Part shown: positions 691 through 12,800 of the stretch, piece after piece
Numbering within the stretch: position 1 is the stretch's first letter
Layout of the letters: every line of letters begins with the position of its first letter
Notes under the pieces: generated by a model
Database searches by the model: none
Seen by the model: only the letters and a program-made list of their open reading frames with translations
What the model was told of the DNA's origin: nothing
Source: a virus
Direction: 5' to 3' (one strand)
UHGV virus genome: UHGV-0156931
DNA: 26,169 bases
Position numbers and translations under genes: made by a program

Positions 691-1743
691 TTACGGGGTA
701 ATGCCAACCGCTGCCGCCACTTTGTCGCCACTTGGCAGCGTTGCCAGAGGATTGAAACGGAGCGCCGTTTCCAGATGATCCGGTGCCAGATGTGCGTAAC
801 GCATAGTCATTTTTATATCGTGGTGTCCGAGAATTTTTTGTAAGGCCAGAATGTTTCCACCCGACATCATGAAGTGCGCCGCAAACGTATGGCGCAGAAC
901 GTGTGTGAGTTGACCGCGAGGGAGCACGATAGACGTTTTTTCCATCACGGATAAAAATTGAAAATAGCAGTCTGTGAAGAAATTGAACCCATCAAGCGCC
1001 ATGATCTCTTCGTAAAGCTCTTTACTGATAGGGATGCTTCTGTTTTTCTTCCCCTTCGTTCTTACAAAGGTAATTCGGTATTTGGTCACCTGTGAGCGGG
1101 TAAGATTTACGGCTTCTCGCCAGCGTGCGCCTGTGCTTAAGCATATCTTAACTACCAGTGCCAGAATTGGCTCCTGACGTTTGCAATCAGCCAGTAATTC
1201 AACAATCTGCTCATGGGTAAGCCATGCCATCTCTTTTTCTGCGATGGTGAATTTTCGCATGTTCTCCAGTGGGTTCGGATACGACCATTCGCCCAGGCGG
1301 GATAGTTCGCTAAAAACACTACTTAGATAGCTTTGCTCCAGGTTAATGGTGACCGGGCTTGCTCCTTTCTTCCATTTCTCGCTGAAGTAGATCTCACCTG
1401 TCAGGCGTTTATCTCGATAGTGGGCAAACATTTTAGAGGTTAGATCAGTTGCAAGGGGATTGCCCAGAGCGTCAACCATCAGCAGCAATTTGTCATAGAC
1501 ATGCTGCCCAGCAGTCAGAGATTTACCATGTAGTTTGAACCATAGCTCAACCACGTCTTTCAGTGTTCGACGATCCACTGATTCACCCAGCCAGGGCTTT
1601 GCTTCGGTTTCTTCCATCGTGTGACGCTCAAAAGCCAGTGCTTCGCCTTTGGTGGCGAATTGTTTACGCACACGACGCCCACTACGTCCGGCGGGGTAAC
1701 ATTCGCAAAGCCATTTTCCTGTGGTGAGTTTTCGTACAGCCAT
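691..1743 (-). CDS. int: Tyrosine integrase, P2/186 Int type
   Basis: ORF 691..1821; the internal ATG at 1743 gives MAVRKLTTGKW..., colinear with the P2 Int N-terminus as recalled. C-terminal catalytic region has R...HxLRHT...Y (LTHVLRHTFA...MRYAHL). 3-prime end abuts host DNA, as expected for attL. Confidence 0.93.
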   Translation of the reverse strand: MAVRKLTTGKWLCECYPAGRSGRRVRKQFATKGEALAFERHTMEETEAKPWLGESVDRRTLKDVVELWFKLHGKSLTAGQHVYDKLLLMVDALGNPLATDLTSKMFAHYRDKRLTGEIYFSEKWKKGASPVTINLEQSYLSSVFSELSRLGEWSYPNPLENMRKFTIAEKEMAWLTHEQIVELLADCKRQEPILALVVKICLSTGARWREAVNLTRSQVTKYRITFVRTKGKKNRSIPISKELYEEIMALDGFNFFTDCYFQFLSVMEKTSIVLPRGQLTHVLRHTFAAHFMMSGGNILALQKILGHHDIKMTMRYAHLAPDHLETALRFNPLATLPSGDKVAAAVGITP

Positions 1744-1822
1744 AAAAAATGCCCTCCAGTGGAGAGCATTTTTACTGTATATATAACCAGTGTCAATGTA
1801 TGAATTTGTATAGCCATACATA

Positions 1823-3154
1823 TCACTGAAGTAAAAAAACTTTTAAAGCATCTTTCACAATATTTGTTGGTTCACCAATACCGCCACTACCTTTTAAAAA
1901 ATGGTATTCACTCATTTCTGCCCATTGTCTTTTTATATTTTCCTCAGTAGGTAAAAGAGATGAGTTTTCAGATAAGTATTTGTAAACTATTCCAAATATA
2001 GCATATTCATAATTATCTACATTATATTCACTTGTTTGATATGAAAATTTAGACAAACCAAACAATTTCATGATTGATTGAGCATCAACTTTATCTTCAA
2101 GAAAGTTGAGAGCTAACTCTCGGTTAAAAGTGTAGATTATTATCGCTAGAGTCCTGTAATAACAATATCCATAAATATATTTGTTGCTAATTTTGTCGCC
2201 TGATAGTAGTTGGTATATTTCAACATATCTAGCAAGTGTTTCAACCTCACGTAATGATAATTTACTACTTTCAATGAACTGTAAGAAAATATCTTCGCTG
2301 GCTTCTACTGCAGCGGTCAGCCTTTCAGATTGCTCACATAGCATCATCCAATGATTTTTGGAAGTTAAAGTGTCATTATAATTATCTTCCTTAAAGGTAA
2401 CAGGAAGGCTGTATGTAAATTTTATAAATTTGTCAAGATAACGGTTGGAGTCTACAGAAGAGCCATAGATATGATTTATGGATGCTTTTAGTTGAGTTGT
2501 GTTTGCAATTAATAAAAAGTTAATGTTTTTTATATCAAAAACATGTTTTATATTTTCAATAATAGAAATGGCAAAACTAGGCTTACATCTGTCTAACTCA
2601 TCTATAATTATTGTTAGTTTACTTTCTCCAGCTAATTTGGTTAGTACTTCTTTTAGAGCAAGAACGTTCTTTTGTGCCTCGATATGATCTTCTAACAGAG
2701 CCTCGATGGTTCCATCGATAGCTGAATTTGCAGCGTCTTTGATAACCTCTTCAAATTCCTCATTAATTTCATCCGCATTTTGTTTTAATACCCAACCAGC
2801 ACCAGCTTTGAGTACAGTCTTAAGTCCGAATCTGAGGGCTGGTAATGCCTTAGATATTAATTCCTTTTTTTCATCGCTATTATATAGAGCTGCAATTGCG
2901 GCCATTATTGTAAGTATGGGAGCATCGTTGTGATCTTCAGTAAAAGCATCTATATAAACTACTTTATGATTGGTCGAGTTTATTTCAATTAAGGATGCTA
3001 ACTTTTTTGAAAACTCTGTTTTTCCAGTCCCCCAGTCCCCATCTATGACCATAGGTGAAACAGGAATATTAGACTCTAGCAAACTTATTATTTTTTCTGC
3101 AATGGCTTTTCTTTTATATTCATCACGTATATCGAAAGTTATATCTGTGCTCAT
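1823..3154 (-). CDS. KAP-family P-loop NTPase (accessory cargo in the lysogenic operon)
   Basis: 443 aa. Walker A GDWGTGKT (GxWGxGKT/S is the KAP signature), Walker B IIIDELDRC. RBS AAGGAAA upstream of the ATG at 3154. Visibly AT-rich compared with the phage backbone. Sits between cI and int. Confidence 0.8.
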   Translation of the reverse strand: MSTDITFDIRDEYKRKAIAEKIISLLESNIPVSPMVIDGDWGTGKTEFSKKLASLIEINSTNHKVVYIDAFTEDHNDAPILTIMAAIAALYNSDEKKELISKALPALRFGLKTVLKAGAGWVLKQNADEINEEFEEVIKDAANSAIDGTIEALLEDHIEAQKNVLALKEVLTKLAGESKLTIIIDELDRCKPSFAISIIENIKHVFDIKNINFLLIANTTQLKASINHIYGSSVDSNRYLDKFIKFTYSLPVTFKEDNYNDTLTSKNHWMMLCEQSERLTAAVEASEDIFLQFIESSKLSLREVETLARYVEIYQLLSGDKISNKYIYGYCYYRTLAIIIYTFNRELALNFLEDKVDAQSIMKLFGLSKFSYQTSEYNVDNYEYAIFGIVYKYLSENSSLLPTEENIKRQWAEMSEYHFLKGSGGIGEPTNIVKDALKVFLLQ

Positions 3155-3365: not shown

Positions 3366-4022
3366 TTATCTAACATACTTAACTGTTAAGCTTATAATTT
3401 TTCCAATTATTTCAACATCTTCTATCTTGCACTCGAAGGCTCTGTTTCCACCTTCAACGAAAATTCTTCCACCGGGTAAACGAGTGATGTCGCGGATTGT
3501 TATTTCGCCATCAATACTTATTACCCATTTACCATCACGTATATCATCAAATTCTTTATCACAAATAAATTCAGAATTGTTATCTGTGATGACAAAAGGT
3601 TTTTTAAACGTAGAGGGTAGAAATCCCTTATCAAAAATATAAAAACCGTCTTCCTGCAATGCTCCATCAGACAATAAATATTTTACTACTTCTATAGTAT
3701 TTGTATTTGCTGATGCTTGCTTTGAACCATGCCCTGTTGTTAGCCAATTAAGCGAGGTACCCGTTTCAAGGGCGCACTGGATTACCCAATCTGCCGGAAA
3801 AATATCACGCATATAACGCGTTGCCATGGTGCTCTTAGAAACACCTAAATGATCACAGAGAGCCTGACGGGTACCGAACCCGTATGCTTCAACCAAACGT
3901 TCTATGGCTTTCTTACCGCCGCTATTGAAATCCACAAATCCTCCAAAGAAATCCAAAATTCGTTGACAGATTCCAAAAGCGATCTTAAAGTTGAACCAGA
4001 AGTCTTCTTTTGGAGCCTTCAC
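3366..4022 (-). CDS. cI: Immunity repressor, 186 CI type (N-terminal HTH)
   Basis: 218-aa ORF starting at GTG 4022. Segment ERLVEAYGFGTRQALCDHLGVSKSTMATRYMR...CALETGTSLNWLTTGHG matches the HTH region pattern of 186-type CI as recalled. First gene of the leftward operon ending in int. True start may be internal. Confidence 0.8.
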   Translation of the reverse strand: MKAPKEDFWFNFKIAFGICQRILDFFGGFVDFNSGGKKAIERLVEAYGFGTRQALCDHLGVSKSTMATRYMRDIFPADWVIQCALETGTSLNWLTTGHGSKQASANTNTIEVVKYLLSDGALQEDGFYIFDKGFLPSTFKKPFVITDNNSEFICDKEFDDIRDGKWVISIDGEITIRDITRLPGGRIFVEGGNRAFECKIEDVEIIGKIISLTVKYVR

Positions 4023-4348: not shown

Positions 4349-4858
4349 ATGTTTGATTACCAAGTTTCCAAACATCCACATTTTGATGAAGCCTGTCGTG
4401 CATTCGCACTGCGCCACAACCTGGTGCAGCTGGCAGGACGTGCAGGAATGAATGTGCAGATTCTGCGAAACAAGTTGAACCCTGCTCAACCTCATTTATT
4501 AACCGCACCAGAAATTTGGCTGCTTACCGATCTGACTGAAGATTCGACGCTGGTAGATGGCTTTCTGGCTCAGATTCACTGTCTGCCATGTGTACCGATT
4601 AATGAGGTAGCAAAAGAGAAACTGCCACATTACGTCATGAGTGCAACCGCAGAGATCGGACGTGTTGCTGCAGGTGCGGTATCTGGCGATGTAAAAACCA
4701 GTGCAGGTCGTCGTGATGCTATCAGCAGCATTAACTCTGTAACACGACTGATGGCGCTGGCTGCTGTTTCATTGCAGGCCCGTTTACAGGCTAATCCTGC
4801 GATGGCGAGTGCAGTTGATACCGTGACTGGCCTCGGTGCTTCATTCGGTTTGCTGTGA
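4349..4858 (+). CDS. cII: CII-type regulator (phage 186 CII / CP76 family)
   Basis: ORF 4340..4858 begins at TTG; the ATG at 4349 gives 169 aa starting [12 protein letters not shown]..., matching the recalled length and N-terminus of 186 CII. Immediately follows apl. Confidence 0.85.
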
Positions 4859-4865
4859 GGTGCTT

Positions 4866-5099
4866 ATGCTGACGAAAGAACCATCATTTGCATCGCTGCT
4901 GGTAAAACAAAGTCCGGCAATGCACTACGGTCACGGCTGGATTTATTTACCTTGTGGGAAAAAGTGGCATCCAAGTTTTGAATTACAACCCCGGCAACAG
5001 GCTTACCGGGGAAGAAATAAAAAGCGATTCCTACAAAGATTTATGGTTAACGTGGCAAACAACCTGCGAACCAAGCGAAAAGTTTTTCTTGGAAGCTGA
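4866..5099 (+). CDS. Small early protein in the fil position; paralogous 5-prime end to the ORF at 5723
   Basis: ATG at 4866 with GAGGTG upstream. 77 aa, MLTKEPSFASLLVKQSPAMHYGHGWIYLPCGKKWHP... The first ~28 codons lie in a 63-bp segment repeated at 5686-5748. 3-prime end overlaps the convergent antisense ORF 5047..5505. Confidence 0.4.
   Translation: MLTKEPSFASLLVKQSPAMHYGHGWIYLPCGKKWHPSFELQPRQQAYRGRNKKRFLQRFMVNVANNLRTKRKVFLGS
4883..4945. repeat. 63-bp direct repeat, copy 1 (one mismatch versus copy 2)
   Basis: atcatttgcatcgctgctggtaaaacaaagTccggcaatgcactacggtcacggctggat recurs at 5686-5748 with C for T. Coordinates +/-2. Confidence 0.85.
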
Positions 5100-5505
5100 G
5101 GTTTACATCGTCAACCCGACCACAGGCAATAGCAGCTCTTTTGTAGGCAGGGTTTAACAAAGATCCGAATGTTGTGGAGTCAGAGTGATGCAAAGCTTTC
5201 AATTTTTGTGCAATGAACTGTGGAGACAATTCATCCTCGGCGTAAAGCAACTCACCATATTGTCGGCTTTGTACGCTTGCTCGTTCCGCAATAATAGCTG
5301 GTTGCCATACAAGTTGGATTGTTGCGATTACAACAACAGGAAAAGCGAACAACCATTCCAGACCTGTATTAGCAAATACAGCTGTTCCGCTTATAAGTTG
5401 GATTGCTGTCATTAATTTATCAGCTCGACCATGGAACGTTGCTGTCATTAGTTCAAGGTAATAACAGTAGTGTAATTGGAAGTATTCGGAGCTTTGTTTA
5501 GTCAT
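5047..5505 (-). CDS. Antisense-oriented membrane protein (152 aa), candidate moron
   Basis: ATG at 5505 with AGGAAT-type RBS. Hydrophobic segment LEWLFAFPVVVIATIQLVW. Transcribed opposite to the early operon and visibly lower in GC than its flanks. No recognised family. Confidence 0.5.
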   Translation of the reverse strand: MTKQSSEYFQLHYCYYLELMTATFHGRADKLMTAIQLISGTAVFANTGLEWLFAFPVVVIATIQLVWQPAIIAERASVQSRQYGELLYAEDELSPQFIAQKLKALHHSDSTTFGSLLNPAYKRAAIACGRVDDVNLSFQEKLFAWFAGCLPR

Positions 5506-5685: not shown

Positions 5686-5748
5686 ATCATTTGCATCGCT
5701 GCTGGTAAAACAAAGCCCGGCAATGCACTACGGTCACGGCTGGATCAT
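5686..5748. repeat. 63-bp direct repeat, copy 2
   Basis: See copy 1. Here the repeat supplies the 5-prime part of ORF 5723..5965. Confidence 0.85.
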
Positions 5749-5965
5749 GGGTGAGGATGGTAAACGCTGGCATCCATGTTATTCACAAGATGAATTGCTG
5801 TCTGAAGTGACCACGAGGAAACGGAGAAAGTCCAAATGTATGCGGCAGAAAGTGAAGTGGTTTATCAGTTTCGTTACAGAGGGGATAGTTATTCAGTACC
5901 TGAAGATGATTTGCTCTGTTGTTATCCGTCGTTGTCGGGCGATGGCAGTTACTTTTTCACACTAA
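5723..5965 (+). CDS. Small early ORF (80 aa), second paralogue of the fil-like gene; extent uncertain
   Basis: MHYGHGWIMGEDGKRWHPCYSQDELL... parallels the copy at 4866 beyond the identical DNA (GKKWHP versus GKRWHP). No good RBS. 3-prime half overlaps ORF 5836..6060 in another frame. Confidence 0.3.
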   Translation: MHYGHGWIMGEDGKRWHPCYSQDELLSEVTTRKRRKSKCMRQKVKWFISFVTEGIVIQYLKMICSVVIRRCRAMAVTFSH

Positions 5966-6952: not shown

Positions 6953-7806
6953 GCACCATCCTGAAATGGGCGGGAAATAAAACCGCCATTATGTCCGAAC
7001 TGAAAAAACACCTTCCTGCTGGCCCGCGACTGGTTGAACCTTTCGCGGGTTCCTGTGCTGTGATGATGGAGACGGATTACCCCAGCTATCTGGTTGCGGA
7101 TATTAATCCTGATTTAATCAACCTCTATAAAAAGGTTGCCGCTGATTGTGAATCGTTTATATCTCGCGCCAGAGTTTTATTTGAGATCGCAAACAGGGAG
7201 GTGGCTTATTACAACATAAGGCAGGAGTTTAATTACTCCACTGAAATTACTGATTTCATGAAAGCGGTATATTTCCTGTATCTCAATCGTCACGGTTACC
7301 GTGGTTTATGTCGCTATAACAAGAGCGGGCATTTCAACATTCCCTACGGTAATTATAAAAATCCGTATTTCCCTGAAAAAGAAATTCGCGCATTTGCAGA
7401 AAAGGCCCAGCGAGCAACGTTTATCTGCGCCAGCTTTGATGAAACGCTGGCGATGTTGAAGGCGGGGGATGTGGTGTATTGCGATCCGCCGTATGACGGT
7501 ACGTTTTCCGGCTATCACACTGACGGCTTCACTGAAGATGACCAGTATCACCTGGCATCTGTTCTTGAACATCGGTCATCAGAAGGACATCCGGTCATTG
7601 TTTCTAACAGTGACACATCCCTGATCCGTTCGCTGTATCGCAATTTTACTCACCACTACATCAAGGCAAAACGCAGCATCGGTGTGGCAGCTGGCGAGGG
7701 TAAATCAGCAACAGAAATCATTGCTGTTTCCGGGCCGCGCTGCTGGGTGGGATTTGATTATTCGCGTGGCGTGGATAGTTCTGCCGTGTACGGAGTACGT
7801 GCATGA
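6949..7806 (+). CDS. dam: Orphan DNA adenine methyltransferase (Dam-like)
   Basis: ATG at 6949 gives [11 protein letters not shown]... (285 aa). SAM-binding motif FAGSCAV and catalytic DPPY (VVYCDPPY). No adjacent restriction endonuclease gene. Confidence 0.9.
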
Positions 7807-10217
7807 GTCATGCCGATATGAACAACTGCTGCGGCTTTAACGAGGCTGCCGCAGCATTCTCATGGAACAGCCCGAAAAAGGCCATTAACCCTTATCTGGA
7901 CCCGGCGGAAGTTGCGCCGGTTTCTACGCTTTCAAACCTGATCACTCTGTACGCTGCCGATAACGAGCAGGAACAGTTGCGCCGCGAGGCACTGAGTGAT
8001 CAGGTCTGGGAGCGTTATTTCTTTAATGAATCACGTGATCCTGTCCAGCGCGAAATGGAGCAGGATAAGCTCATTAGCCGGGCAAAGCTGGCGCATGAGC
8101 AGCAGCGTTTTAATTCAGACATGGTCATTCTGGCGGACGTCAACGCCCAGCCTTCCCATATCAGCAAGCCGCTGATGCAACGTATTGAATACTTCAGCAG
8201 CCTGGGCAGGCCAAAGGCTTATTCCCGCTATTTACGTGAGACGATTAAGCCATGTCTGGAACGACTGGAGCATGTACGCGACAGTCAGCTATCTGCATCT
8301 TTTCGCTTTATGGCAAGCCATGAAGGGCTGGACGGCCTGCTGATCCTGCCTGAAATGAGTCAGGATCAGGTGAAACGCCTGTCCACCCTGGTAGCTGCGC
8401 ATATGAGTATGTGCCTTGATGCAGCTTGTGGTGATTTGTATGCCACCGATGACGTTAAGCCAGAAGAAATCCGCAAGACATGGGAAAAGGTGGCAGCGGA
8501 AACCCTGCGTCTGGATGTCATCCCACCTGCGTTTGAGCAACTCCGTCGGAAAAGAAACCGCCGTAAACCCGTGCCCTATGAACTCATTCCGGGTTCGCTG
8601 GCGCGTATGTTGTGCGCCGACTGGTGGTATCGGAAATTATGGAAGATGCGTTGCGAATGGCGGGAAGAGCAGTTGCGCGCTGTTTGCCTGGTCAGCAAAA
8701 AAGCATCTCCTTATGTCAGCTATGAAGCCGTGATGCATAAACGTGAGCAGCGCCGTAAGTCGCTGGAGTTTTTCCGTTCTCATGAACTGGTGAACGAAGA
8801 CGGCGACACGCTGGACATGGAGGATGTGGTAAACGCCAGCAGCAGCAACCCTGCGCATCGCCGCAATGAGATGATGGCCTGTGTTAAAGGTCTGGAGCTT
8901 ATCGCGGAAATGCGCGGTGACTGCGCCGTTTTCTACACTATCACCTGTCCGTCGCGTTTCCATTCCACGCTAAATAACGGCAGACCAAACCCGACCTGGA
9001 CAAACGCGACGGTAAGACAAAGCAGCGATTATCTGGTCGGCATGTTTGCTGCATTTCGTAAGGCGATGCACAAAGCCGGGTTGCGCTGGTATGGCGTGCG
9101 GGTGGCTGAGCCGCATCATGATGGCACAGTTCACTGGCACCTGTTGTGTTTCATGCGCAAAAAAGACCGCCGTGCCATCACTGCATTACTGCGTAAGTTT
9201 GCCATCCGTGAAGACCGCGAGGAGCTGGGCAATAACACTGGGCCGCGCTTTAAGTCTGAGTTGATTAACCCGCGCAAAGGAACGCCGACAAGCTACATCG
9301 CGAAATATATCAGTAAGAACATTGACGGTCGTGGTCTGGCTGGCGAGATCAGCAAGGAAACGGGTAAATCTCTGCGTGATAACGCTGAATACGTGAATGC
9401 CTGGGCGTCTCTGCATCGTGTTCAGCAATTCCGCTTCTTTGGTATTCCGGGGCGTCAGGCTTACCGTGAACTTCGCTTGCTGGCTGGTCAGGCGGCAAGG
9501 CAACAGGGTGACAAAAAAGCAGGTGCGCCGGTACTGGATAACCCGCGTCTTGATGCCATTCTGGCTGCTGCTGATGCTGGTTGTTTTGCCACCTACATCA
9601 TGAAGCAGGGCGGCGTACTGGTTCCCCGTAAATATCACCTCATCAGAACCGCTTATGAAATCAACGAAGAGCCGACCGCCTATGGCGATCACGGCATTCG
9701 TATTTATGGCATCTGGTCACCCATTGCAGAGGGCAAGATCTGCACTCATGCAGTGAAGTGGAAAATGGTTCGTAAAGCCGTTGACGTTCAGGAGGCGGCA
9801 GCCGACCAGGGCGCTTGCGCCCCTTGGACTCGTGGCAATAACTGTCCCCTTGCTGAAAATTTGTACCAACAAGGGAAAGACAAATCAGCTGATGGAGATA
9901 CCAGAACGGATATCACCCGCATGGATGACAAGGAGTTGCACGATTACCTGCACAGTATGAGCAAAAAAGAGCGCCGGGAACTGGCAGCAAGGTTACGCCT
10001 TGTGAAACCGAAACGGCGTAAAGACTACAAACAGCGAATTACAGATCATCAGCGACAGCAGCTCGTGTATGAACTGAAGTCCAGGGGATTTGATGGCAGC
10101 GAGAAAGAGGTCGATTTACTGCTTCGCGGCGGCAGTATTCCGTCAGGAGCAGGCCTGCGTATCTTCTATCGGAACCAGCGTTTGCAGGAAGATGATAAGT
10201 GGCGAAACCTGTATTAA
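7803..10217 (+). CDS. A: Replication initiation endonuclease (P2 gene A family, rolling-circle)
   Basis: 804-aa ORF, last and largest gene of the early operon, start overlapping the dam stop. Size and position fit P2 gpA. Family assigned by synteny and length; catalytic residues not mapped. Confidence 0.85.
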
Positions 10218-10310
10218 TTACGCGGGTTAACAATTCGTGCCCTTAATAATACCAGGCATATCAGGCTGATGAGCATAAAAAAAACGTTTTACATCAGTAA
10301 GATTATTATA

Positions 10311-10330
10311 TACTGTAAATATAAACAGTG
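10311..10330 (+). promoter_or_regulatory. LexA (SOS) box overlapping a promoter
   Basis: taCTGTaaatataaACAGtg fits CTGT-N8-ACAG (consensus TACTGTATATATATACAGTA). TTTACA (-35-like) lies 17 bp upstream of TACTGT. About 40 bp upstream of the ORF at 10371. Confidence 0.6.
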
Positions 10331-10370
10331 GTTATGTATACAGTATTGCTTTGGTGTCATAGGAGGAAAG

Positions 10371-10559
10371 ATGCAGGACTATTTTTTGGAGTCTTTGAAG
10401 CTCCAGCGCATTGATTTTTTTCTTAAGCTTGTAGCGGCTAGTGAGTGTAGTGATGAAGAGAAGGGGCTGGCCCTGCAGTGGGTTTCTGAACTGACAGATG
10501 AACTCATGGCAAAAATCAGAACCCACGAATACAACCGCTCAATGGATGTCATCAGCTGA
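10371..10559 (+). CDS. Small SOS-regulated protein (62 aa), possibly the N-terminal part of a Tum-like antirepressor
   Basis: ATG at 10371 preceded by AGGAGGAAAG. First gene after the LexA box. Ends 10 nt before the DinI-like ORF, which is in another frame. Confidence 0.5.
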   Translation: MQDYFLESLKLQRIDFFLKLVAASECSDEEKGLALQWVSELTDELMAKIRTHEYNRSMDVIS

Positions 10560-10569
10560 GGTGACTTTT

Positions 10570-10803
10570 ATGCGCATTGAAATAATGATCGATAAAGAGC
10601 AGAAGGTTAGCCAGTCTACACTGGACGCCCTTGAATCCGAGCTTTACCGCAATCTGCGCCCCCTGTATCCCAAAACGGTAATTCGTATCCGCAAAGGTAG
10701 CTCTAACGGTGTGGAACTGACCGGACTGCAACTGGACGAAGAAAGAAAACAAGTGATGAAAATTATGCAGAAGGTGTGGGAAGACGACAGCTGGCTGCAT
10801 TAA
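10570..10803 (+). CDS. DinI-family protein (DinI-like, possibly the C-terminal module of a Tum-type antirepressor)
   Basis: 77 aa; MRIEIMIDKEQ...LDALESEL...KIMQKVWEDDSWLH aligns by eye with E. coli DinI (MRIEVTIAK...IDALAGEL...ILQETWESADDW). GAGGTG RBS. Downstream of the LexA box. Confidence 0.8.
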   Translation: MRIEIMIDKEQKVSQSTLDALESELYRNLRPLYPKTVIRIRKGSSNGVELTGLQLDEERKQVMKIMQKVWEDDSWLH

Positions 10804-10935
10804 GAAACGTTGCTGGCGTCTGAACTTGCTTCTGGCGTCAGCAAGGTTGAACAACGAGCTGTGCGAGGCGTTAGCTCTGTGGTGCATGTCTATGCCGCAT
10901 GAGATCGCATGATCGTTTGAGGATCGTTTTTGCTA

Positions 10936-10964
10936 AGGCCTGCCAGAACTGGCGGGCTTTTGTG
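10936..10964 (+). terminator. Putative intrinsic terminator after the SOS module
   Basis: GCCTGCC-agaact-GGCGGGC stem (one G-U pair) followed by TTTTGTG. Three GATC sites cluster just upstream. Coordinates +/-2. Confidence 0.35.
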
Positions 10965-11006
10965 TAGATCATGCAGGTGCATGAAAACCACTACATAAAG
11001 CGGGCA

Positions 11007-11102: not shown

Positions 11103-12800
11103 ATGCATAGAATTGTTAAAGCTCATCTTGATAACTTCGTGAAAAGTCACGGTATTGAAAATCATCAAGAGGACACGCAGTTCGAGCTATTTTGTAATAA
11201 AGCTTTGCTGTCTTCTCGTATAAGTATGGATTATGAAATTGACGATGTAACAACCGGGGCTGGTGATGATGGCATGGATGGTGTTGCCATCATAATTGAT
11301 GAAGAATTGTGTATATCTTCTGAAGATGCTACTTCAATATTTTCCTCATTACGTAAAAATCATGATGTTGATATTGTTTTCATTCAATCAAAGCGTAGTG
11401 AGTCTTTTGATTTAGGTGATTTTTTAAAGTTTAAAGCTTCCGTTTTTAGATTTATAGAGGATTCTCCTTACTTATGTGTGGATGAAATTCAAAAAAATGC
11501 AAGGGAAGTTTTTGATGTCATAATAAAAAATGTACCTAAGATAAGAGGTGGGCGACCAACTTTTACTGCTAAATATGTTGCAACTGGTTTATATAAAAAA
11601 CCTAAAGAGTTAGAGAATGCTCGGAAGTTATTTGCAAAAGAAATTGACGAGTTGGGATATTTCTGTAATGTTAGCGTTGAGTTTGTTGATCGTGATGAAT
11701 TAACACGTACTTGGATTGATACTTATTCAGTTGTCAATGCTGAATTGCCATTATTTAGTAATGCACCACTTCCCAAAATTAATGGTATAGAAGAAGCTTA
11801 TCTTGCTGTCGTTAAAGCAAAGGATTTTGTTGGTAATTTATTGATGACGGACGAGGGGTCTCTCCGTAATCATGTTTTTGTTGAGAACGTCCGGGCGTTC
11901 TTGGGAATTGATAATCCTGTTAACGCATCGATTGCTGAGACAATTAAAAATAAAGATGCCGCTTCACGATTTCCTGTTTTAAATAATGGAATAACAATTG
12001 TTAGTCCGGATGTAAAACTTCAAGGGAGTATTTTACATCTAGAAAATTTTCAGATAGTTAATGGCTGTCAGACATCAAATGTGCTTTACGAATGCCGCGA
12101 TTCCTTAGATGATACGATGATGGTTAACTTGAAAGTCGTAGAGACATTAAACGAAGATGTTTTTTCAGAATTGGTTCGAGCGACTAACAGTCAGACTAAG
12201 GTTGATGAGACTCAGTTCTATTCTCTTCGTCCAATAATAAAGAAAGTAGAAGCGTACTTTGATACTTATGAAGGGCAGGATGGTCGTTTATATTTAGAAA
12301 GACGTGAAAGACAATTTATCGGTAGAGATATACCTGCAGTTAGAGTATTTTCAGTTCATATGGCAGCTAAATGTGTAGCAGCTATGTTCTTCCGTCGGCC
12401 AGATCTTTCATACAGATACCCTAAAAAAATGTATGAATTGTTGGCTGAGAAAATATTTTCTAATGATACCAAGGAGATTGTATTTTATTCAGCATGTTTA
12501 ACATTATATAGATTACACTTACTTACTTCTAATGCTGATATTCCACAAAATATCAGGAAGTACAAATGGCATTTAATGGCGGTAGTTGGTGCTTTAATTG
12601 CCGGAAAGGATGTGCCTAATTTTGGCTCTAAGAAAATGGATGCGTATTGTAATAAAATCATCACTGAAATGACAAAGCATGGTGATAAAATAAAAGCTAC
12701 TTTCCAGAAGGCTGTTGATATTGTTTTGTCAATTGATGATATCACTGATGATAGAATGAAAAGGCAAGCTATTTTAGAGGAAATGCTTGCCAAGATTTAA
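11103..12800 (+). CDS. 565-aa cargo protein: Mrr-like PD-(D/E)xK nuclease N-terminus with an AIPR-like body; candidate abortive-infection/defence protein
   Basis: Intact ORF, RBS AAGGGA. N-terminal TGAGDDGMDGVAIIID...VDIVFIQSKRS resembles the GDxGxDG...QxK signature of Mrr-type nucleases. Later NGITIV...IVNGCQTSN motif recalled from AIPR-type proteins (unverified). No Walker A. Strongly AT-rich. Bracketed by terminators. Confidence 0.85.
   Translation: MHRIVKAHLDNFVKSHGIENHQEDTQFELFCNKALLSSRISMDYEIDDVTTGAGDDGMDGVAIIIDEELCISSEDATSIFSSLRKNHDVDIVFIQSKRSESFDLGDFLKFKASVFRFIEDSPYLCVDEIQKNAREVFDVIIKNVPKIRGGRPTFTAKYVATGLYKKPKELENARKLFAKEIDELGYFCNVSVEFVDRDELTRTWIDTYSVVNAELPLFSNAPLPKINGIEEAYLAVVKAKDFVGNLLMTDEGSLRNHVFVENVRAFLGIDNPVNASIAETIKNKDAASRFPVLNNGITIVSPDVKLQGSILHLENFQIVNGCQTSNVLYECRDSLDDTMMVNLKVVETLNEDVFSELVRATNSQTKVDETQFYSLRPIIKKVEAYFDTYEGQDGRLYLERRERQFIGRDIPAVRVFSVHMAAKCVAAMFFRRPDLSYRYPKKMYELLAEKIFSNDTKEIVFYSACLTLYRLHLLTSNADIPQNIRKYKWHLMAVVGALIAGKDVPNFGSKKMDAYCNKIITEMTKHGDKIKATFQKAVDIVLSIDDITDDRMKRQAILEEMLAKI

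Follow-up and report, generated by a model that had tools for sequence, protein, structure and literature searches.

How does a prophage whose repressor carries no LexA-like autocleavage domain come to be induced by DNA damage? The question is raised by a 26,169-nucleotide stretch of viral DNA (UHGV virus genome UHGV-0156931; hereafter, the window), which is an Escherichia coli P2/186-like prophage adjoining rcdA, the same site as that occupied by DuoHS in E. coli HS. Its immunity repressor gene, cI, lies on the minus strand (positions 3366-3935), with a GTG start and a GGAGG motif upstream. The encoded protein contains both domains of 186 CI (PF07022 and PF16452), and a domain search found no match to peptidase S24, the LexA-like autocleavage domain. 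CII and Fil proteins of the 186 type are also encoded by the prophage. In 186 biology, the repressor is not cleaved by activated RecA and SOS induction needs an antirepressor (PMC3121763). With no autocleavage domain found in CI, an antirepressor would therefore be needed for SOS induction here as well.

An initial annotation of the window, made from the sequence, had proposed that a LexA-controlled pair of open reading frames (ORFs) constitutes the induction module of a 186-type switch. The context next to gene A, the 186-type CI, the homologies to Tum and the genetics of DuoHS all bear this proposal out. We conclude that a P2-like prophage of the Fels-2/DuoHS type very probably has its SOS induction operon at this locus, with tum split into tumA and tumB. 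The system as such is already known, having been established on the near-identical relatives Fels-2 and DuoHS.

The tum module occupies positions 10288-10965 on the plus strand and comprises a promoter, an SOS operator, a 62-aa gene (ORF1, tumA), a 77-aa DinI-family gene (ORF2, tumB) and a probable terminator. Replication gene A (gpA; 7803-10217; PF05840, E = 1.4e-127) lies immediately upstream, and the module begins 70 nt past its end. The same placement is found in 186, PSP3, Fels-2 and DuoHS.

The promoter has a -35 hexamer, TTTACA (10288-10293), and, 17 nt past it, a -10 hexamer, TACTGT (10311-10316), which at the same time provides the first six bases of an SOS box. This promoter-like overlap had been pointed out by the initial annotation, and its design is that of the annotated SOS promoter p95 of 186 (TTCACA-N18-TACTGT), where the LexA box also runs from the -10 hexamer on and the 186 record gives the identical TACTGT as the -10 element. 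The window promoter can thus be regarded as a p95 equivalent. Its -35 hexamer is unchanged in six relatives, including SEN8 and Kp phi4.1, in which the flanks have diverged. The -10 hexamer is weak, agreeing with TATAAT at three of six positions only, and for this reason the promoter receives no call in a generic sigma-70 promoter scan.

The near-consensus LexA box noticed from the outset (SOS box 1, TACTGTAAATATAAACAGTG, 10311-10330, plus strand) is present and matches the palindromic consensus at 17 of 20 positions. When up to three mismatches to the 20-mer consensus TACTG(TA)5CAGTA were allowed, two sites were found in the window (10311-10330 and 1773-1792) and none in any of 100 shuffled sequences. 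The loose core CTGT-N8-ACAG is not rare by itself (one occurrence in the 26 kb window against 0.36 expected, and at least one in 29 of 100 shuffles), and more weight attaches to the full 20-mer. Both CTGT and ACAG of box 1 are unchanged across the relatives.

What the initial annotation had missed is a second box (SOS box 2, CAGTGGTTATGTATACAGTA, 10326-10345, plus strand), which overlaps the first by 5 nt and matches the consensus at 15 of 20 positions, with a perfect right half. Judged by its sequence, the 35-nt segment at 10311-10345 is an operator of two overlapping SOS boxes of the colicin type, and it is identical at 30 of 35 positions to the operators of colicin N, colicin E1 and pesticin. 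Both boxes have been kept in SEN8 and the Klebsiella phage, although the flanking DNA has diverged. The dual overlapping operator of colicin genes has been linked to tight repression of lethal genes, and tight, cooperative repression would likewise suit a gene that, once expressed, commits its host to lysis.

Apart from this operator, the window has a single consensus-like LexA site (1773-1792), directly before int. On the minus strand, this box is situated within the spacer of a promoter-like TTGACA-N16/17-TAAAAAT (TTGACA and box together span 1773-1796), followed by a hairpin, GCTCTCC-ACT-GGAGGGC (1751-1767), the run ATTTTTT and the int start codon. The predicted start of this promoter, near 1760-1762, falls inside the 5′ arm of the hairpin with its T-run, and the same element contains the int ribosome-binding site. 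The element is kept in DuoHS, vB_EcoM-813R9 and two Klebsiella phages despite differing upstream cargo, with compensatory changes in the stem, and is missing from Cartapus, where cI abuts int. A literature search on SOS boxes at the integrase of P2-like phages found nothing. Through this candidate LexA-box promoter, int may be SOS-inducible. A wiring of the prophage to LexA at two points, the double tum operator and a LexA-boxed int promoter, is a tentative proposal that we consider rather unlikely. If it were true, RNA reading through from cI and the cargo gene would be terminated, with its int ribosome-binding site masked; transcripts started under SOS control would escape and express integrase, and DNA damage would separately license derepression and excision.

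As to the gene products of the tum module, the second is the easier to place. ORF2 (tumB; 10570-10803, plus strand) matches the DinI family PF06183 over profile positions 1-63 of 63 (E = 6.6e-23; 81.3 bits, with a gathering cut-off of 24.2) and can be aligned over its whole length with E. coli DinI (PDB 1GHH, E = 3.9e-6), which upholds the resemblance to DinI that the initial annotation had noticed by eye. ORF2 belongs to phrog_189 and shares 40% identity with 186 Tum over Tum residues 71-145 (E = 6e-24). The background on which that annotation had built, namely that tum of 186 follows gene A, is LexA-repressed and encodes a protein with a DinI-like C-terminal half, is likewise correct according to the 186 record. 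Against NF007893, the NCBIfam equivalog model of chromosomal DinI, ORF2 scores 42.4 bits; because this is under the cut-off of 111, ORF2 is a phage paralogue of DinI and not dinI itself.

ORF1 (tumA; 10371-10559 including the stop codon, plus strand) required more sensitive methods. Searches of Pfam, NCBIfam and PDB sequences gave no match, and pairwise BLASTP produced no alignment between ORF1 and 186 Tum, between ORF1 and TumA of PSP3, or between PSP3 TumA and 186 Tum. ORF1 falls into phrog_698 (E = 3.6e-38), a family annotated as 'unknown function'. We therefore compared profiles: that of the ORF1 family (484 close homologues; 66 representatives at 50% clustering) and that of the family of 186 Tum residues 1-70. 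The two align in hhalign with 97.8% probability (E = 8.1e-13), ungapped over residues 1-44 and with 16% identity between ORF1 and the N-terminal half of 186 Tum; residues E7, R13, L20, C26, A34-L35 and E40 are the same in both proteins at the same positions. Independently of hhalign, 186 Tum itself matches phrog_698 over residues 7-44 (E = 2.4e-5). On the strength of these two matches, ORF1 is genuinely, if distantly, homologous to the antirepressor half of Tum, a relationship recognisable at the profile level only. The alignment to 186 Tum that the initial annotation had suggested as a check thus gives a positive result for both products, for ORF1 by profiles only. AlphaFold predicts ORF1 to be a two-helix hairpin (pLDDT 89.7), and a Foldseek search of PDB with this model returned generic helical hairpins only, all with E > 0.1, which is uninformative on function.

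Functional evidence is available for the relatives. In the Phollow study (Nat Microbiol 2025, PMC12055606), 'tum (locus tag ECHS_RS04495)' was deleted in-frame in E. coli HS, after which mitomycin C no longer brought about lysis or the formation of virions; lexA(Ind-) had the same effect. ECHS_RS04495 codes for 62 aa and is flanked by gene A and the DinI-like ECHS_RS04500, and ORF1 is 98% identical to its product (61/62 residues), as it is to STM2728 of Fels-2 (98%). Work by others on nearly identical relatives thus shows that induction needs both tum and LexA. For Fels-2, a study of Salmonella exposed to mutagen lists STM2726-2728 as a differentially expressed operon and counts STM2727 with those LexA-regulon genes whose induction was strongest (PMC2225428).

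The same data bear on a reading of the operon as an SOS-modulating accessory (moron) unit, in which a DinI paralogue is combined with an unrelated small protein and induction proceeds by another route. The lack of a Pfam or NCBIfam family for ORF1, the 'unknown function' of its PHROG family and the name 'levan regulatory protein' that some records give to ORF1 homologues would all be compatible with this. Set against the profile homology of ORF1 to the antirepressor half of Tum, the deletion phenotype in DuoHS and a CI repressor without autocleavage domain, which requires an antirepressor for SOS induction, this reading is very improbable, and we retain that of an induction operon.

The initial annotation had left it undecided whether this operon encodes two separate proteins or a frameshifted single tum gene. 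Of these possibilities, the former is the better supported. The arrangement that it had described, a 62-aa ORF followed 10 nt later by a 77-aa ORF in another frame, is confirmed, with the ORF starts corrected by one base. We favour two separate cistrons, representing the split tumA/tumB subtype as found in PSP3 and Fels-2 and not the fused 186 form; a single fused polypeptide of 146 aa, as in 186, is not encoded in the window. The module is found in 1125 of 5426 complete E. coli genomes, or approximately one in five, and its two-ORF layout recurs in about 1080; the layout is also present in Fels-2, DuoHS, Cartapus, SEN8, the Klebsiella phage, PSP3 and RCIP0057. Annotation in the listed E. coli records treats the two ORFs as normal genes, with the RefSeq name 'hypothetical protein' for the 62-aa product. 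Each ORF has a ribosome-binding site of its own (GGAGG at 10362-10366 for tumA; GAGGTGA at 10558-10564 for tumB). In comparison with SEN8 and the Klebsiella phage, changes in both ORFs are mostly in third codon positions, and synonymous exceed non-synonymous changes, a pattern that points to purifying selection on ORF1 and ORF2 alike. Fusion of the two ORFs in relatives, which the initial annotation had suggested looking for, was not seen in the ORF1 family: none of the 66 representatives has a DinI-sized extension past the match, and the longer ones carry the match at their own C-terminal end. The fused form is that of 186 Tum itself.

A defective module, in which a frameshift or stop codon interrupts what would be one tum gene (whether through sequencing error or as a decaying pseudogene), would be in keeping with the one 146-aa polypeptide of 186, which has the identical N-to-C order, and with the position of the two ORFs 10 nt apart in different frames. 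This explanation is exceedingly improbable in the face of the recurring layout, the separate ribosome-binding sites, the synonymous excess in both ORFs and the lack of DinI-sized extensions; moreover, DuoHS has the same layout and is inducible. A related suggestion is that a full-length Tum-like fusion is made additionally, by programmed +1 frameshifting or stop read-through, and that this fusion is the active antirepressor. The frame of ORF2 is indeed open for 72 nt 5′ of its ATG, overlapping the end of ORF1, and in PSP3 and RCIP0057 the genes are in-frame, with a stop codon and one sense codon between them. However, the frame offset between ORF1 and ORF2 takes the values 1 (Fels-2 group), 2 (SEN8 and Kp phi4.1) and 0 (PSP3 and RCIP0057), so that no single recoding mechanism for making a fusion is conserved; a canonical slippery site was not seen at 10498-10559, and ORF2 has a ribosome-binding site and an ATG of its own. 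Recoding is accordingly judged highly unlikely. Both the broken gene and programmed recoding were rejected on the combined grounds of own ribosome-binding sites, variable offset and recurring layout, which leaves two separate cistrons as the favoured arrangement. A generic scan also placed a weak hairpin over the junction of the two ORFs (10548-10565), which was taken as a chance feature, the tumB ribosome-binding site lying inside it.

If there are two proteins, it may be asked whether they act separately. TumA and TumB could jointly form a non-covalent equivalent of full-length Tum, in which case both would be needed and TumB would be more than a RecA modulator. The two genes are always adjacent and co-transcribed in the relatives compared, they correspond to one polypeptide in 186, and the unrelated antirepressors of the Gifsy phages are also accompanied by DinI homologues in LexA-regulated operons (PMC3121763). 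In Fels-2 and PSP3, tum has been described as split, with the gene for the antirepressor lying first and a dinI homologue behind it (Lemire et al. 2011, PMC3121763), and the activity of the upstream PSP3 gene as an antirepressor, hence the sufficiency of TumA alone, was reported there as a personal communication. This report argues against joint action, as does the alignment of TumB over its full length with DinI, a protein that binds RecA filaments. In addition, the 186 record describes a separate DinI-like product made from an internal GTG start, with the note that it modulates SOS induction. Joint action is therefore improbable in our estimation, and we continue with a TumA that acts as the antirepressor by itself.

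Downstream of tumB, RNA folding predicts a long imperfect hairpin without a T-run (10806-10848, plus strand) and, further on, a probable intrinsic terminator at the operon end (10935-10965, plus strand), with a GC-rich stem followed by TTTTGTGT. The stem of the latter has 11 pairs in the minimum-energy and centroid folds alike, and a simple terminator scan did not call it. Approximately 95 nt 3′ of tumB are kept in Cartapus, SEN8, Kp phi4.1, PSP3 and RCIP0057. Homology to Fels-2 and DuoHS ends at the tumB stop codon and is picked up again about 80 nt on, in the shared terminator region. As a result of this break, the window is without the orf97-like gene that follows the DinI gene in 186, Fels-2 and DuoHS, and its tum operon is shorter than those of Fels-2 and DuoHS. 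A search of Rfam gave no RNA family match across the whole window.

Taken together, the following sequence of events can be proposed. In the lysogen, we infer that LexA occupies both overlapping boxes, covering the -10 element and the transcription start region, and that the promoter is thereby silent. DNA damage would activate RecA and lead to self-cleavage of LexA, whereupon the tum operon would be transcribed as far as the terminator, which would close it. TumA would then bind directly to the 186-type CI, its presumed target, and block operator binding, and the early lytic promoter would fire. This step is modelled on the biochemistry of 186 Tum, which binds the CI repressor and prevents it from binding its operators (PMC3121763). 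CI in the window is 87% identical to that of DuoHS and only 32% identical to 186 CI, and for that reason the mode of binding between CI and TumA may differ from that of 186. TumB, translated from its own ribosome-binding site, would most likely bind RecA filaments and tune the SOS signal, a role as SOS/RecA modulator that we extrapolate from DinI and from the 186 record, where short DinI-like Tum products are noted in the same role.

The main value of these results lies in annotation and not in discovery. There is a gap in that Pfam, NCBIfam and PHROGs give the TumA family no name, though it is present in about one-fifth of complete E. coli genomes. By tying the 62-aa family to Tum and to the genetics of DuoHS, such prophages become recognisable as SOS-inducible via an antirepressor. 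Modest points on the tightness and the number of LexA-controlled steps in this phage group are added by the double operator of colicin type and by the SOS box that precedes int.

Several known systems share features with the window, to different extents. The colicin and pesticin genes cea, cna and pst have the same kind of 35-nt operator, in which two boxes hold CAGTG in common; their boxes, however, are downstream of the -10 element, whereas in the window the -10 lies within box 1, and the genes downstream are unrelated. The gfoA and gftA operons of Gifsy-1 and Gifsy-2 are LexA-repressed and, as in the window, combine a DinI homologue with a small antirepressor directed against a non-cleavable repressor (PMC3121763). 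Their gene order is reversed, and the same paper links these antirepressors to Tum only via the DinI partner. The tum gene of 186 corresponds to the window in its place after gene A, its LexA-repressed promoter p95, the DinI-like C-terminal half of its product and its 186-type CI target, but Tum is made as a single chain of 146 aa, its gene has internal starts, and there is a single SOS box.

PSP3 comes closer: behind gene A it has two cistrons ordered as in the window, with a LexA box upstream. Its record describes tumA as 'similar to 5' end of 186 tum; UV induction of prophage' and tumB as 'similar to dinI and 3' end of 186 tum'. Its TumB has 59 of 77 residues in common with ORF2, whereas its TumA is a member of a different family in PHROGs, phrog_1993, and pairwise BLAST does not match it to ORF1; furthermore, its two genes are in-frame with each other and its single SOS box is near the start codon. 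Fels-2 of Salmonella LT2 (STM2728/STM2726.1) has a module with 97.4% DNA identity to that of the window, in another host and with an orf97 homologue (STM2726) present, and its record calls the 62-aa gene a hypothetical protein only. DuoHS, finally, differs in the orf97-like gene after its DinI gene, in the cargo between cI and int and in three spacer bases of SOS box 2, and shares with the window the rcdA-side integration, the gene order, the promoter and both SOS boxes.

A second LexA-type box of the window lies upstream of the integrase gene, int (CACTGGTTATATATACAGTA, 1773-1792, read on the minus strand), inside the spacer of a TTGACA-N16/17-TAAAAAT promoter. Downstream of this promoter, a hairpin with a T-run (1744-1767) contains the int ribosome-binding site, and the int ATG (1743) follows immediately. 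The upstream element of promoter, box and hairpin (1741-1796, minus strand) is kept in the E. coli HS prophage DuoHS, 813R9, Kp 4LV2017 and KP12, with compensatory changes in the stem. It is missing from Cartapus, where the 186-type immunity repressor gene, cI, adjoins int. This LexA-boxed promoter and hairpin before int suggest that int expression may be under SOS control.

Placed between cI and int as cargo is a minus-strand gene for a KAP-family P-loop NTPase (1823-3154), the product of which was assigned by PADLOC to PDC-S20, a candidate defence system (E 2.9e-171); in relatives, other cargo occupies this position. Further along, two distinct plus-strand ORFs (4836-5099 and 5723-5965) match the family of Fil, the cell division inhibitor of 186. 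The first is partially overlapped by a minus-strand ORF of 152 aa (5047-5505), which has no match in the defence database.

At the tum promoter, both half-sites of SOS box 2 (10326-10345) are invariant among the window, DuoHS and the Salmonella LT2 prophage Fels-2, relatives otherwise near-identical, and three neighbouring spacer bases (10336-10338) read GTA, ACA and ATG, respectively. The family of the antirepressor TumA (10371-10559) has no model in Pfam or NCBIfam, its PHROGs (698, 8554 and 1993) are each labelled 'unknown function', and some database records wrongly name its members 'levan regulatory protein'.

Directly 3′ of tumB, the DinI-family gene, RNA folding predicts a long stable plus-strand hairpin with no T-run (10806-10848), and an Rfam search of the window gave no match. 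Approximately 95 nt 3′ of tumB are kept even in the distant relatives Cartapus, SEN8, Kp phi4.1, PSP3 and RCIP0057, which suggests a functional role for this stretch at the RNA or DNA level. With Fels-2 and DuoHS, homology is lost precisely at the stop codon of tumB and picks up again at ∼10884. Whereas 186, Fels-2 and DuoHS all carry an orf97-like gene after the DinI gene, none is present at this position in the window (10804-10883). The next gene 3′ of the tum operon (11103-12800, plus strand) encodes an AIPR/AbiU-type abortive-infection protein (PF10592; PADLOC AbiU, E 4.4e-112), which has 528 of 565 residues in common with STM2723.1 of Fels-2.
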